IMG/VR virus record: IMGVR_UViG_2547132274_000013
Length of the DNA stretch: 5,740 nt
Strand: one strand, 5' to 3'
From: a virus
Taxonomy: Duplodnaviria; Heunggongvirae; Uroviricota; Caudoviricetes
Shown: one piece after another, positions 1,211 through 5,740 of the stretch
How the letters are laid out: every line of letters starts with the position of its first letter
How positions within the stretch are numbered: position 1 is the first letter of the stretch
Translations under genes and position numbers: made by a program
Notes under the pieces: generated by a model
Database searches by the model: none
What the model saw: only the letters and a program-made list of their open reading frames with translations
What the model was told of the DNA's origin: nothing

Positions 1211-1321
1211 ACGGAACAGCTTATTTATTTTTTCAGGTTTTGTAAATTATTTGTTCGTGGTTGTTCCAGGTTGTTCGGTGATTCTGGCTGATGTTTACAT
1301 ACTGATTTTTATGTATATGTT
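1211..1321. promoter_or_regulatory. Divergent control region: three phased 10-bp direct repeats flanked by outward-facing -35-like hexamers
   Basis: TTGTTCGTGG / TTGTTCCAGG / TTGTTCGGTG at 1251-1260, 1261-1270, 1271-1280, with exact 10-bp periodicity. Leftward: -35-like TTTACA (complement of 1241-1246), 17-bp spacer, -10-like TAAGCT (complement of 1218-1223), reading toward the minus-strand gene. Rightward: TTTACA at 1294-1299 and a weak -10 candidate TATGTT at 1316-1321, reading toward the capsid gene. The hexamers are weak; the repeats are unambiguous. Confidence 0.4.
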
Positions 1322-1470: not shown

Positions 1471-2616
1471 ATGAAGAAATTAATCGAACTCCGCCAGCAA
1501 AAAACCGCCCTGAAAAACCAGATGCGATCCCTGCTGGAAAAAGCCGACAGTGAAAACCGCAGTCTGACCGATGACGAGGGCAAACAGTTTGATGAACTGC
1601 GTGCAAAAGCCGATTCCCTCGACACAGAAATCTCCCGTCTTGAAGCTGTTGCGGATGAAGAACGTAACCAGCCTGGTGTTTCCGTCGAAGAGAAAATCAC
1701 CAAAGATGAACTGCGCTCTTACATTCTGACCGGGGAAACCCGCAACCTGTCCGGCAGTGTCCCGGCTGATGGTGGTTATACGGTTATCCCGGAACTGAAC
1801 AGAGAAATTATGCGTCAGCTTTCTGATGAATCGGTGATGCGTAAAATCTGTACCGTTAAAACCATTCACAGCAATGAATTTAAGCAACTGGTTTCTGCCG
1901 GGGGCGCGGTCGTTGAACACGGTGAAGAAGGCACTACACGTAACCAGACGGCAACACCAAAACTGAATGAAGTCAGTATCCGCCTGTATCCGATCTACGC
2001 TTACCCGAAAACCACTCAGGAAATTATCGATTTTTCCGAAGTCGATATTATGGGCTGGTTATCCTCTGAAATTGGCGACACTTTCGTTGATACCGAAGAA
2101 ACGGATCTGGTTTCCGGTGACGGCGAGAAAAAAGCTAAAGGTTTCCTGGCTTTCCCGCGCACTGCAGATAATGACAAAACCCGTCCTTTCGGTACGCTCC
2201 AGACGAAAAAAGTGACTGGCAGCCTCAGCGCCGACATGCTGATTGACCTGAAATTTACGCTACGCAATAAGTACCGCAAAAAAGCTGTATGGGTGATGAA
2301 CTCAAATACAGCCGCCTCCGCACAAAAACTGAAAAATGCCACTGGTGATTACATCTGGCGCGATCGTTTACAGGCTGGTGATCCTGATTCTCTGCTGGGG
2401 CTTCCGGTTGAATATCTGGAATTTATGCCGGACGGTGTGATTGCAGTAGGTGACTTTAAGCGCGGTTATTTCATCGTTGACCATGAAACCGGTACGCGTA
2501 CCCGTCCGGATTTCAGCGAACCCGGATTCATTAACATCTATACCCAGAAATATCTGGGCGGTGGTGTGGTGGATTCGAACGCCATCAAGATTCTGGAAAT
2601 TCAGGCTGGCAAGTAA
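1471..2616 (+). CDS. Phage major capsid protein, HK97 family, with N-terminal delta (scaffold-like) domain
   Basis: 381-aa ORF. The N-terminal roughly 70-100 aa are a charged, coiled-coil-like segment (MKKLIELRQQKTALKNQMRSLLEKADSENRSLTDDEGKQFDELRAKADSLDTEISRLEAV) typical of the HK97 delta domain, followed by a body typical of HK97-fold capsid proteins. A prohead protease gene lies immediately downstream. Stop TAA at 2614-2616. Confidence 0.88.
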   Translation: MKKLIELRQQKTALKNQMRSLLEKADSENRSLTDDEGKQFDELRAKADSLDTEISRLEAVADEERNQPGVSVEEKITKDELRSYILTGETRNLSGSVPADGGYTVIPELNREIMRQLSDESVMRKICTVKTIHSNEFKQLVSAGGAVVEHGEEGTTRNQTATPKLNEVSIRLYPIYAYPKTTQEIIDFSEVDIMGWLSSEIGDTFVDTEETDLVSGDGEKKAKGFLAFPRTADNDKTRPFGTLQTKKVTGSLSADMLIDLKFTLRNKYRKKAVWVMNSNTAASAQKLKNATGDYIWRDRLQAGDPDSLLGLPVEYLEFMPDGVIAVGDFKRGYFIVDHETGTRTRPDFSEPGFINIYTQKYLGGGVVDSNAIKILEIQAGK

Positions 2617-2624
2617 TGAGCAAA

Positions 2625-2645
2625 GGGGGCTTCGGCCTCCTTTTT
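2625..2645 (+). terminator. Intrinsic terminator/attenuator after the capsid gene
   Basis: GGGGGC (2625-2630), TTCG tetraloop (2631-2634), GCCTCC (2635-2640; one G-U pair in RNA), then TTTTT (2641-2645). It starts 9 nt after the capsid stop and precedes the protease RBS. Confidence 0.55.
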
Positions 2646-2665
2646 CAGCTTTATGGAGTACACCG

Positions 2666-3226
2666 ATGAAAAATACCGATTTTGAAATCCGTACATCTGA
2701 ACTGACCGCCAGCGATAAAAAACTGGTGGGTTATGCCGTTCGCTGGAACAGCCTTTCAGAAATTATCTGGGACGAATTCCGCGAACAGTTCACGCCGGGG
2801 GCTTTTGCTGACTATCTGGCGGCGGGTAATGATGTGCGCTGCCTGTATGAGCATGACTATACCCGACTGCTGGGGCGCACCAAATCCGGAACACTGGTAC
2901 TGACTGAGGACAACACCGGGCTACGTTTTGAACTGACACCGCCTGATACCCAGCTTGGAAAAGATGTGCTTACGCTGGTGGAGCGAGGCGACATTACAGG
3001 AATGAGCTTTGGCTTTCGCGCATTATGCGAAGAATGGAATATCGCGCAAAAACCGTATCTGCGCACTGTTACCGCCGCAGAACTCCGTGAAATCACGATA
3101 ACGTCAATGCCTGCTTATCCCGAATCCGGCGTGGAGATTGCCCACCGTTCGTTGTTTGCACAGCACCCTGAATTACGCCCGGCAGGAAATAATCGTCATC
3201 GCTGGGCTGAACTGGCGGGGTTGTGA
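2666..3226 (+). CDS. Prohead (maturation) protease, HK97 family (S78/U35-type)
   Basis: ATG at 2666 preceded by GGAG at 2655-2658. Motifs typical of HK97 prohead proteases: YEHDYTRLLGRT with a candidate catalytic His, and GDITGMSFGF with a candidate catalytic Ser. Stop TGA at 3224-3226. The ORF track's upstream extension to 2450 overlaps the capsid gene and is not the real start. Confidence 0.85.
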   Translation: MKNTDFEIRTSELTASDKKLVGYAVRWNSLSEIIWDEFREQFTPGAFADYLAAGNDVRCLYEHDYTRLLGRTKSGTLVLTEDNTGLRFELTPPDTQLGKDVLTLVERGDITGMSFGFRALCEEWNIAQKPYLRTVTAAELREITITSMPAYPESGVEIAHRSLFAQHPELRPAGNNRHRWAELAGL

Positions 3227-3227
3227 T

Positions 3228-4442
3228 ATGTGGTGGCCTTTTAGTCGTAAAAAAAGCGATCTGCGTAACCTGTCCATTGATGATTTTCTGGCGCTGTCCG
3301 GCGTACCGAATACCGGATCCGGAGAATATGTTTCTGCCGGGACGGCTGAATCATTGCCTGCTGTGATGAACGCGGTTTCTGTCATCGCTGAGGCGGTGGC
3401 CACGATGCCGTGTTATCTGTATCTGGTACGTAATGACAAGGGCAGGGAGGCGCGGGAATGGCTGGACAGTCATCCGGTAGATATTCTGCTGAATGAGCAG
3501 CCTAATTCGTGCCAGACACCTTACCAGTTTAAACGCACAATGATGCGTCACTGTCTGCTGAACGGTAACGCCTATGCGGTTATTGAGTGGGGGCAGGACG
3601 GGCAGCCAAAATCACTTCATCCTTATGCGCCGGGGTGTGTTGTACCGGAACGCACAGGCGCACACAAATACCGCTATACCATCACCGAACCCTGTACAGG
3701 AACGGTGCGCACGTATTTACAGGAAGAAGTTCTGCATCTCCGCTATGCCTCGGATGATGGCTTTCTGGGGCGCTCCCCCGTCACTATTTGCCGTGAGGCG
3801 CTGGGGCTTGGCCTTGCTCAACAGCGTCACGGAGCCAGCATTATGAAAGATGGCATGATGGCGGCAGGGATTATCACGTCAGGCGAATGGCTGGACGGTG
3901 TGAAAGGTAAACAGGCATTAGACGCCCTGGAACGCTACAAGGGGGCGAAAAATGCCGGAAAAACGCCAATCCTTGAAGGGGGCATGGATTACAAGCAACT
4001 GGGAATGAGTAACCAGGATGCGGAATGGCTGGCCTCCCGTCGCTTCTCCATTGAAGACATCGCCCGGATGTTCAACGTGTCGCCTATTTTTCTGCAGGAA
4101 TACAGCAACAGCACCTACAGCAATTTCAGTGAGGCAAGCCGCGCGTTTCTGACCATGACAATGCGCCCGTGGCTGGCGAACTTCGAACAGCAAATCAAGG
4201 CCGCTTTGCTGGTGGCTTCTCCCGTACCTGGTACCCGTTATCTGGTTGAGTTTGATTCAGCCGATTTATTACGCGCCACCCCTACCGAACGTTACGCCAC
4301 GTATGAGAAAGGGATTAAGAACGGGATCATGAATCCGAACGAAGCCCGCGAACGTGAGGGGATGCCGCCGCGTGAAGGTGGCGACGAATTCAGCCAGGCA
4401 TGGAAGCAGACGGTGGAAATTAAAGGTGAAAAAGATGAGTGA
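3228..4442 (+). CDS. Phage portal protein, HK97 family
   Basis: ATG at 3228, 1 nt after the protease stop (TGATATG). The 404-aa product has portal-like segments (CLLNGNAYAVIEWG; RRFSIEDIARMFNVSPIFLQEYSNSTYSNFSEASRAFLTMTMRPWLANFEQQ). Stop TGA at 4440-4442. The ORF-track start at 3138 overlaps the protease; 3228 is preferred. Confidence 0.85.
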   Translation: MWWPFSRKKSDLRNLSIDDFLALSGVPNTGSGEYVSAGTAESLPAVMNAVSVIAEAVATMPCYLYLVRNDKGREAREWLDSHPVDILLNEQPNSCQTPYQFKRTMMRHCLLNGNAYAVIEWGQDGQPKSLHPYAPGCVVPERTGAHKYRYTITEPCTGTVRTYLQEEVLHLRYASDDGFLGRSPVTICREALGLGLAQQRHGASIMKDGMMAAGIITSGEWLDGVKGKQALDALERYKGAKNAGKTPILEGGMDYKQLGMSNQDAEWLASRRFSIEDIARMFNVSPIFLQEYSNSTYSNFSEASRAFLTMTMRPWLANFEQQIKAALLVASPVPGTRYLVEFDSADLLRATPTERYATYEKGIKNGIMNPNEAREREGMPPREGGDEFSQAWKQTVEIKGEKDE

Positions 4443-4734
4443 AGAAAAAATTACACCTGATGAAGTCAGGGCACATCTTCGCCTTGATGACTTTTCCGGA
4501 GAAGGCGAACTTCTGAAAATGTATACCGATGCGGCGCTGGAAGCCTGCCAGAAGCACATCGGGAAACGTTTTGAAGACGGTCTGGAATTTACCCCGGCAA
4601 TGCGTGTTGGTTGCCTGATGTACATCGCTTTTCTGTATGAGAACAGGGAAGCGGTTTCACCTGTGGAGCAGTCGGAACTGCCTATGGCTATTTCTGCGCT
4701 CTGGTCAGTTTATCGTGATGTGGGGGTGTATTGA
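4435..4734 (+). CDS. Head-tail connector/adaptor protein, gp6-like (Phage_connect_1-type)
   Basis: ATG at 4435 preceded by AGGTGA at 4423-4428; overlaps the portal stop by 8 nt (ATGAGTGA). The 99-aa product MSEEKITPDEVRAHLRLDDFSGEGELL...FLYENREAVSP matches the gp6-like connector pattern (conserved HLR-x-DD near the N-terminus and YENRE). Confidence 0.8.
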   Translation: MSEEKITPDEVRAHLRLDDFSGEGELLKMYTDAALEACQKHIGKRFEDGLEFTPAMRVGCLMYIAFLYENREAVSPVEQSELPMAISALWSVYRDVGVY

Positions 4735-5174
4735 TGCCGTGGCAACCATTAAGGCGTTGTACTGAACCGGGCTGTAATAAGCGTGTGAAGTCCGGCAAGT
4801 GTGAAGAGCACAGGCGGGCTGCATGGCGTGCAGAGGATGCCAGACGGGGACACCGCCGCGCGCGTGGGTATTCCCGACAGTGGGACAAATACCGCGCCCT
4901 GTATCTGAGCAAAAACCCGTTATGCGTGCGTTGTCTGGCTAAAGGTATTTATACGCCAGCTCTTGTGGTGGATCACATCATTCCCATCAATGGCGGCGGT
5001 GATGTTCTCTTCTGGCCTGAGTGGAATCACCAGGCATTGTGCCAGACGTGCCACAACCGTAAGACGACACGGGAAGATCCAGCCACGAAAGCGAACCGTA
5101 AGGCGGGCATGTATCGCGAGCAGGAAGAACGGGCGGCACATCGTAACGACTGGATGTATGGCGATGATGACTGA
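4734..5174 (+). CDS. HNH endonuclease (terminase-associated, phage packaging type)
   Basis: ATG at 4734 overlaps the connector stop (TGATG). The 146-aa product has Cys-rich zinc-binding and HNH motifs (CTEPGCNKRV...KCEEH; VVDHIIPINGGGD; NHQALCQTCHNRKT). It sits immediately upstream of the small terminase, as in HNH-dependent cos-packaging phages. Confidence 0.85.
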   Translation: MPWQPLRRCTEPGCNKRVKSGKCEEHRRAAWRAEDARRGHRRARGYSRQWDKYRALYLSKNPLCVRCLAKGIYTPALVVDHIIPINGGGDVLFWPEWNHQALCQTCHNRKTTREDPATKANRKAGMYREQEERAAHRNDWMYGDDD

Positions 5175-5462
5175 ACAGGAGCAAAACAGGCTGATACGTG
5201 GACTGATAAGGCAGCGTGACACATGGAAGGCACAGGAGACAGGGCACAAAGCCAACAGGACAGGGCGCACAGAACGCACCACAGCGAAGCGATTAACCGA
5301 CCGTGACCGCGAGGTCATGGAATGTTTTCGCAATCGCTGGTGAGGCCGTCAGAGGGGGTGGGGGAGGTTTTCAGGACGAAACCGTCCCTGCCGGACACCG
5401 ACCGCCTCCTCAAATTTTTGTGCACGGGAATTTTTTTGAAAATAATTGGGCGAAAAAAGAAC
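5175..5462. other. Candidate cos/packaging-recognition region between HNH and terS
   Basis: 288-bp non-coding gap in an otherwise overlapping operon. It contains a G-rich tract GGGGGTGGGGGAGG (about 5354-5367), a dyad GGACG-AAAC-CGTCC (5374-5387), a GTGCAC palindrome (5420-5425) and an A/T tract AATTTTTTTGAAAATAATT (5429-5447) just upstream of terS. The position between HNH and terS matches where cos lies in HK97-like phages. Function is inferred, not shown. Confidence 0.3.
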
Positions 5463-5740
5463 ATGGCAAGACCACCAAAAGCCCCCGCTTACCTGGATGA
5501 AATCGCGGTCAGGCAGTGGAAGGAAAAATCGCGCCAGCTTTCCGGACGGGAAGACCTTACCCCCGCCGACTGGAGCAATCTGGAGCTGTATTGCGTTAAC
5601 TACTCCATATACCGCAAAGCCGTCGAAGACCTTGCCACGCGCGGGTTCAGCATTGTTAACAGTCAGGGCAGCGAGAGCAGAAACCCCGCCCTGAGCGCAA
5701 AGGCTGACGCAGAAAATGTAATGAACACATCCCCCCCATT
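5463..5740 (+). CDS. Terminase small subunit, P27 family (3' end beyond window)
   Basis: ATG at 5463; the frame stays open to the window end (no stop, so it is absent from the ORF track). My translation is MARPPKAPAYLDEIAVRQWKEKSRQLSGREDLTPADWSNLELYCVNYSIYRKAVEDLATRGFSIVNSQGSESRNPALSAKADAENVMNTSPP, which fits the P27-family TerS pattern (LELYC-x-Y; NPAL) and the HNH-adjacent position. Confidence 0.8.
   Translation, partial: MARPPKAPAYLDEIAVRQWKEKSRQLSGREDLTPADWSNLELYCVNYSIYRKAVEDLATRGFSIVNSQGSESRNPALSAKADAENVMNTSPP

Follow-up and report, generated by a model that had tools for sequence, protein, structure and literature searches.

The 5,740-nt stretch of DNA analysed here (the window; IMG/VR virus record IMGVR_UViG_2547132274_000013) very probably belongs to a capsid-forming phage-inducible chromosomal island (cf-PICI) of E. 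coli and makes up its right-hand half, with the ssb/perC end, a cargo gene and most of the packaging operon. The cf-PICIs, a family described in 2022-2023, are phage satellites which have a small capsid of their own and obtain the tail from a helper phage. The initial annotation of the window had proposed this reading, and it was supported by the flanks of relatives, by the published gene order and by the identities to the prototype island EcCIEDL933.

The gene map was defined by a listing of open reading frames (ORFs) together with profile searches (Pfam, TIGR and PHROG).

1-75, + strand: 3′ end of ssb, last 24 codons (ending ...DGIPF), from the translation; ssb is annotated in KFu019 (L001) and TUM9757 (L002)
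91-372, + strand: PerC-family regulator (Pfam PerC, PF06069, 3e-35)
418-666, + strand: conserved 82-aa gene of unassigned role (PHROG 1957, 4.7e-36)
703-1176, - strand: accessory ('cargo') gene of 157 aa, divergent, in the variable region that precedes the packaging module; no family match
1177-1470, no strand: 294-nt spacer before the capsid gene
1471-2616, + strand: major capsid protein, HK97 fold, 381 aa (Phage_capsid 3e-60; TIGR01554 2.5e-88)
2666-3226, + strand: prohead serine protease, S78 HK97 type, 186 aa (Peptidase_S78 3.2e-45)
3228-4442, + strand: portal, 404 aa (Phage_portal 8.3e-93; TIGR01537 1.3e-74)
4435-4734, + strand: gp6-like head-tail connector/adaptor Ad1, 99 aa (TIGR01560 2.7e-19; PHROG 40 'head-tail adaptor Ad1' 1.7e-27)
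4734-5174, + strand: HNH endonuclease, terminase partner, 146 aa (HNH 9e-10)
5158-5343, + strand: 61-aa gene, homolog of EcCIEDL933 'gene 1792' (PHROG 3173 3.6e-29)
5344-5462, no strand: 119-nt non-coding spacer before terS, conserved among divergent islands; a probable cos
5463-5740, + strand: small terminase, P27/Terminase_4, first 92 of 118 codons, the gene being cut by the window end (Terminase_4 5.8e-16; PHROG 83 2.9e-27)

It is clear from this map that capsid to terS form a tightly packed series on the + strand, with overlapping stops and starts and with every ORF intact. Such short overlaps on a single strand are expected for an operon, as the initial annotation had claimed. Its six head and packaging gene calls (capsid, protease, portal, gp6-like connector, HNH and small terminase) were all recovered in the profile searches, and so was its PerC-like regulator upstream; the gene list itself was incomplete, for the 61-aa ORF at 5158-5343 had been overlooked and the true start of the protease is 2666. 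Among the profile families it had named, those for capsid, S78 protease, portal, HNH and Terminase_4 were matched, whereas the connector reached only 5.5e-4 with the Pfam model Phage_connect_1, just under the family cut-off, and was recognised through TIGR01560 and PHROG 40 instead. No tail, tape-measure or lysis gene was found in the window by the ORF listing and the profile searches, again in agreement with the earlier description.

The closest experimental counterpart is EcCIEDL933 of E. coli O157:H7 EDL933, a 15.4-kb island which carries the genes from capsid to TerL, including connectors and HNH, and no tails (Alqurainy et al., bioRxiv 10.1101/2022.09.08.507074). It is induced via alpA by the helpers HK106 and HK446, forms heads of about 46 x 42 nm and packages only itself; its transfer requires every packaging gene, alpA and the helper tail genes, and mutation of 'gene 1792' severely reduced transfer (10.1101/2022.09.08.507074). 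The same study gave the conserved order of proteobacterial cf-PICIs as capsid-protease-portal-head connectors followed by hnh-terS-terL, and the order in the window is this one. Capsid, protease and portal are reversed relative to the HK97-type order with the strand unchanged, as had been noticed earlier; the order which looked odd beside HK97 is the normal one for proteobacterial cf-PICIs. Furthermore, a scan of one genome per species revealed 80 related loci in about 20 genera, with the same order wherever the genes were visible.

EcCIEDL933 was located by reading the EDL933 chromosome directly (L005 30329-44760, between roxA and phoQ); the phage record OR845787 was considered as a source of it and rejected, as it holds a different cf-PICI type. 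The packaging proteins of the window's island shared 57-93% identity with those of EcCIEDL933: 75% for the capsid (by tblastn), 63% for the protease, 80% for the portal, 57% for the connector, 84% for HNH, 80% for the 61-aa protein (60 aa in 'gene 1792'), 87% for TerS and 93% for TerL, the last one read from relatives. Outside the packaging module, PerC was 60% identical, and the 82-aa protein was 40% identical to that of a 74-aa gene, both in the same position. These values fall within the 50-90% which the authors gave as the range among members of the family (10.1101/2022.09.08.507074).

The capsid protein, whose N-terminus carries a delta/scaffolding domain of about 93 aa, matched the Protein Data Bank (PDB) entry 9GYI with E=2e-186. 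This entry is the EcCIEDL933 capsid at 3.2 Å, a T=4 shell of 47.5 nm without crosslink (He et al., bioRxiv 10.1101/2025.02.11.637232). The cleavage-site region SGSVPAD of the window's protein aligned with STGVPAD of EcCIEDL933, and the 'connector loop', the main difference of the EcCIEDL933 capsid from the T=7 capsid of HK97 (10.1101/2025.02.11.637232), was present. Since structure match, cleavage region and loop all agree, the product of the window's capsid gene is likely to be a small T=4 head.

Full-length relatives and rival explanations

Partial matches to the window were present in 927 complete E. coli genomes, 50 of which covered 80% or more of it; identity was 98.0-98.8% in the best full-length matches. 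In these genomes the full islands were about 15 kb long, bounded by att direct repeats and core genes, with no tail, lysis or holin genes inside. The 98% identical island of TUM9757 reads integrase, AlpA-type helix-turn-helix (HTH) regulator, Icd-like gene, DUF4222, primase, ssb and PerC, then capsid to terS, terL and one small gene; it is flanked by the two copies, 14,866 bp apart, of an imperfect direct repeat of 69 nt, and the site lies between cspD/yljB and clpS. The flanks suggested for checking in the initial annotation therefore hold what it had anticipated: upstream, integrase, AlpA-type HTH and primase (in TUM9757 and in other relatives), and downstream, terL after terS, then the att repeat and no tail genes. 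Across the relatives the contents were integrase, AlpA-type regulator, primase or DUF927, ssb, perC, the packaging module and terL; integrase, AlpA-type regulator and primase were seen in all the full-length ones, the window itself contributing the ssb 3′ end and perC, and terL directly followed terS in every relative of 98-100% identity.

The exact capsid protein of the window was present in 38 blocks of the assembly collection, with the same packaging module in all 8 places shown. Identical capsid protein and module occurred at no fewer than five integration sites, that of TUM9757 and at least four more (near rcnB/thiM, at cueO/hpt, at the ilvG leader and others), with different integrases and replication modules and with either perC or a proQ-domain gene upstream. 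In L006-L008, L010 and L011 perC is replaced by a gene for a 176-aa ProQ/FinO-domain (RNA-binding) protein at ~8958-9488, the capsid module and its leader being otherwise identical.

In three cases (KFu019, L009 and L012) an HK97-like prophage had the island inserted within its terL, in the same orientation as the prophage late genes. The terL of the KFu019 prophage is split into an N-terminal part at 6475-7503 and a C-terminal part at 23432-24175, and terS, terL, portal, protease, capsid and connectors are all present a second time, as genes of this prophage and in the canonical order (HNH-terS-terL-portal-protease-capsid-connector-head closure-tail), so that the two arrangements can be seen side by side. 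Among 5426 complete E. coli genomes, 36 had the terL::int junction.

These embedded copies bear on one rival explanation, a complete but rearranged HK97-like prophage whose tail and lysis genes lie just beyond the window. The window alone is compatible with it, the initial annotation had kept it as a caveat, and in KFu019 genes for tail, tape measure and lysis are indeed found within 3-15 kb of the island. However, these genes belong to the surrounding prophage and not to the island, as the split terL and the second head and packaging set reveal, and the islands of L002, L006-L008, L010, L011 and L013 have no tail genes and are followed by core chromosomal genes within 1-2 kb. The caveat is thus excluded for the close relatives, and a rearranged prophage is a very unlikely source of the window. 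It is also extremely improbable that the window is a decaying prophage remnant, an immobile head module left after deletion of tail and lysis genes. Its small size and its want of tail and lysis genes would suit such a remnant, and E. coli often harbours cryptic remnants of prophages; against this, no ORF is broken and the genes are tightly packed, int, alpA and primase of satellite type always accompany the module, and the prototype EcCIEDL933 is experimentally mobile. The identical capsid protein at five or more sites with different integrases indicates recent mobility of a modular element and not decay, and the order of the 9-10-gene module, kept across about 20 genera at 60-90% protein identity, indicates long-term selection.

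A domesticated producer resembling a gene transfer agent (GTA), which would package host DNA instead of itself, was weighed for two reasons: after 9GYI the best solved-structure matches include the Rhodobacter capsulatus GTA (capsid 1.3e-45, portal 4.8e-23), and the capsids are small. GTAs, however, encode their own tails and this element has none; it carries an integrase, att sites, replication genes and cos-type terS/terL/HNH of its own and occupies many sites (as read from the relatives), and EcCIEDL933 capsids package island DNA exclusively. We therefore give the GTA-like explanation almost no weight.

Several points weigh against the identification as a cf-PICI. The integrase, alpA, primase, terL and att lie outside the window and were read from relatives of 98-99% identity. 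The last ~25 bases (5716-5740) diverge from every relative, in which the terS frame continues; this is probably contig-end or assembly noise. SatelliteFinder has eleven core cfPICI components, of which the head-tail adaptor/head-closure gene is lacking here, and with one joining component missing the rule in the literature that nothing but tails is borrowed may not transfer unchanged. Finally, the mechanism was shown for EcCIEDL933, while for the window's island function is deduced from homology and synteny. Helper-dependent induction, small capsids and dependence on helper tails have been shown for EcCIEDL933, KpCIDSM30104 and EcCIGN02175 only (10.1101/2022.09.08.507074; 10.1101/2025.02.11.637232).

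If the island works as its prototype does, a helper phage would turn on alpA, upon which the ~15-kb island would excise and replicate. The capsid protein with its N-terminal scaffolding domain, the S78 protease which removes that domain, and the portal would build a small T=4 shell, able to hold about 15 kb and too small for a phage genome. TerS, TerL and HNH of the island would cleave the island DNA at the island's cos, probably at 5344-5462, and package it, the gp6-like connector would cap the portal, and a tail from the helper or from another phage would be attached, lysis being borrowed too.

The putative cos is the spacer between the 61-aa gene and terS. It lies just upstream of terS, contains the G-rich GGGGTGGGGGAGG, then CTCAAATTTTT and ATTTTTTTGAAAATAA, and is conserved among the window's island, EcCIEDL933 and Klebsiella and Enterobacter islands in the form GGGGTGGGGGAGGTTTTCAGGAC ... 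CTCAAATTTTT ... GCACGG.ATTTTTTTGAAAATAA. In HK97 the cos lies between the HNH gene and terS, and 5344-5462 is a probable candidate for the cos region here.

Absence of a head-closure gene

A search for Phage_HCP homologs (E<=1e-3) which covered the window and the complete islands of L001 and L002 found none. The stop of the portal gene overlaps the start of the connector gene (4435-4442), so there is no room for a head-closure gene at this place. In EcCIEDL933 this gene encodes 112 aa (L005 41103-41441; PF05521 7e-23), and in KpCIDSM30104 and EcCIGN02175 both an 'adaptor' and a 'connector' are present, the swapping of which alters which tails fit (10.1101/2025.02.11.637232). All three studied cf-PICIs thus have a head-closure gene, whereas the lineage of the window has one of the two joining genes.

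This condition is widespread. A short portal-to-HNH interval was observed in about 10 of ~66 complete loci of the species-representative set and in 20 of 61 loci on IMG/VR contigs; when the data were pooled, 40 of 141 related loci (~28%) were without the head-closure gene, and these fell in at least six clades of the connector (Ad1) tree. SatelliteFinder recognises 11 core cfPICI components, and elements with 10 of the 11 form its 'Type B', the commonest class (459 of 969 elements), from which it follows that elements one component short are already catalogued; here Phage_HCP was equated with the second head-tail component of SatelliteFinder (adaptor/connector), a mapping which is our own and is not given in the publications. 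No functional treatment of the absent gene was found in the cf-PICI literature examined.

Two routes may be considered: either the gp6-like connector alone closes the head and docks the tail, or a closure protein is borrowed from the helper. The head-closure protein of the KFu019 prophage is 52% identical to that of EcCIEDL933. Borrowing from this embedding prophage was examined as a specific case and found to be unsupported; the island's connector has no detectable similarity to the connector of that prophage. Either route, if true, would amend the rule that these satellites steal only tails and could alter which tails fit. A widespread sub-type without the gene bears in this way both on host range and on the claim that nothing but the tail is taken.

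Promoter region and structured leader of the packaging operon

The 294-nt spacer ahead of the capsid gene contained the following features.

1239-1277, + strand: upstream box TTTGTAAATTATTTGT and three TGTTC(G/C) repeats (at 1252, 1262 and 1272, phased at 10 bp)
1294-1321, + strand: promoter-like site TTTACA-16-TATGTT, putatively of the packaging operon (consensus scan)
1327-1470, + strand: structured 5′ leader of ~140 nt (P1 1327-1351, P2 1355-1415, P3 ~1430-1466)

The box TTTGTAAATTATTTGT is conserved across genera, and the phased TGTTC(G/C) repeat gave 2 matches against 0.10 expected by chance; box and triple repeat together may represent an activator site. Promoter and terminator scans of the window returned overall no more sites than chance, and the single promoter-like site before the capsid gene was retained only for its position in a stretch which is conserved among cf-PICI loci. 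Near attL and attR of TUM9757 (L002 8594-8662 and 23460-23528) there were further TGTTCG-type repeats with a spacing of about 10 bp, and one att-adjacent stretch there was 89% identical over 28 nt to the pre-capsid repeats (window 1250-1277). The att-side and pre-capsid repeats might be a common binding site of one island protein, or the likeness might be due to chance.

An alignment of 31 distinct leader sequences from more than 15 genera was folded with RNAalifold, and two hairpins, P1 and P2, were obtained. P1 is the near-invariant GTGGCACTCAGACGTGAGCCGCCAC at 1327-1351, whereas in P2 (1355-1415) the sequence varies freely and the pairing is kept. In the pair count 96.6% of the cells were paired, and 13 of the 20 pairs had a compensatory change; none of 500 shuffles reached the observed values, and slid controls were 29-45% paired. 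In minimum free energy (MFE) folds the invariant GGTTTCACGTCT (1430-1441) pairs downstream with ACGAGAAACC to form P3, over the likely ribosome-binding site before the ATG. An alternative helix joins TCACGTCT (1434-1441) to AGACGTGA in P1 (1336-1343); it is 98.8% paired, with one compensatory pair and two G-U pairs, and in the loci of Yersinia and Leclercia a joint change at three positions preserves both the P1 stem and the long-range helix.

The leader of EcCIEDL933 differs in sequence and follows the same plan, in that CCAGGACGC in P1 is complementary to GCGTCCTGG. There, GCGTCCTGG is the 5′ strand of a hairpin which is followed by U8 and the ATG and is terminator-like. Many Xenorhabdus loci have no structured leader. 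The P1 motif was detected in at least 120 IMG/VR stretches, and of the 80 examined 78 had a capsid gene starting 128-144 nt downstream, the remaining 2 being interrupted by the contig end. The idea that the leader is common to real phages was rejected, as in the annotated phage collection it was matched in three records only, those carrying a cf-PICI-type head block.

A scan of the whole window against Rfam gave no match at E<=1, which places the leader outside the described RNA families. A DNA-level feature (protein sites or a cos) was also considered in its place. This fits P2 poorly, since its sequence is free while pairing is kept and G-U pairs far outnumber A-C mismatches on the + strand; for the conserved 8-mers the case is less clear-cut. 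We read the leader as an uncharacterised cis-regulatory element. It may act as a conditional switch; the window has a predicted hairpin over the ribosome-binding site and EcCIEDL933 one of terminator-like form, and both leaders allow a long-range pairing as an alternative. AlpA of P. aeruginosa is published as an antiterminator which loads at a promoter element, and it is a speculation of ours that the island AlpA or a helper factor could act at the leader.

With a conserved promoter region and a structured leader of its own, expression of the packaging operon is probably gated apart from the upstream genes. The timing of head production and the leader are not addressed in the cf-PICI literature examined, and the conserved leader offers a concrete handle on when a satellite makes its heads. 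The combined proposal, that the leader is a conditional switch targeted by AlpA-type antitermination or a helper factor and that the head is closed by the gp6-like protein alone or by a borrowed head-completion protein, is tentative, and we think it somewhat more apt to fail than to hold.

Comparison with known systems

The family, the gene order and the capsid structure are already published, and near-identical islands are common in sequenced E. coli. The window's island resembles EcCIEDL933 in layout (ssb, perC, capsid, protease, portal, connector, HNH, 60-aa gene, terS, terL and a last gene of ~94 aa), in the triple TGTTC repeat before the capsid gene and in size, the att repeats of L002 lying 14.9 kb apart and the prototype being 15.4-15.5 kb long in the literature. 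It differs from the prototype in four respects: EcCIEDL933 has the 112-aa Phage_HCP gene between portal and connector, which is absent here; the divergent 157-aa cargo gene before the capsid gene is an addition in the window; attB is different, being roxA/phoQ in EDL933; and the leader sequences are unlike, that of the prototype ending in a terminator-like hairpin and U8, while there is no U-tract in the window.

The cargo protein belongs to an orphan family of 20 clusters, from Enterobacterales wherever the organism was named, with no match in Pfam, PHROGs, PADLOC or NCBIfam. Its predicted fold was confident (pLDDT 90) and gave only weak winged-helix-like matches. The gene occupies the variable slot before the packaging module, which is the expected home of immunity genes in cf-PICIs (10.1101/2025.02.11.637232).

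Among other islands, the portal and the protease nearest to those of the window belong to the island of K. pneumoniae ATCC 13883 (L017), at 87% and 85% identity; this island has the same gene order and the same type-A leader motif, whereas its capsid is only 68% identical to that of the window. ATCC 13883 and DSM 30104 are the same type strain, and we hence take the L017 island to be KpCIDSM30104. KpCIDSM30104 and EcCIGN02175 release tail-less capsids which pick up tails of other species (10.1101/2025.02.11.637232). With their own DNA-filled heads and borrowed tails, cf-PICIs carry DNA between strains and even between genera.

HK97 shares with the window the families of the delta-domain capsid, S78 protease, portal, gp6 connector and the HNH, Terminase_4 and TerL of cos packaging. 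The order in the window is different, with capsid-protease-portal first and HNH-terS-terL last, and it has no gp7, gp9, gp10 or tail genes; the HK97 capsid is T=7 and crosslinked, that of the EcCIEDL933 prototype T=4 and uncrosslinked. The head module of the window had low similarity to real phages. A cf-PICI-type capsid-protease-portal block, 64-75% identical to that of the window, was seen in four records deposited as phages (LR881103.1, PQ569648.1, OR850982.1 and OR544139.1); two of these, at 16.5 and 15.3 kb, are close to satellite size and are therefore probably satellites filed as phages. Public records name cf-PICI genes as generic phage proteins, and recognition of such elements from raw sequence should help their annotation.

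Classical PICIs such as EcCICFT073 have the same left half as the full-length relatives, with int, alpA and primase, and share attB sites with cf-PICIs (10.1101/2022.09.08.507074). They differ in having no capsid, portal or terL and in redirecting the helper terminase by Rpp; in SatelliteFinder the portal, connector and adaptor are forbidden components for the PICI model. Helper-embedded PICIs (HE-PICIs) are inserted in a late prophage gene and co-oriented with it, and their known sites include the terminase site A:Terminase_1:245 (Tommasini, Mageeney and Williams 2023, PMC10111431). The L001, L009 and L012 copies resemble them, lying co-oriented in prophage terL, while L002 and others are not embedded. 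The term 'capsid-forming' is absent from the main text of PMC10111431, whereas the embedded islands described here are capsid-forming.

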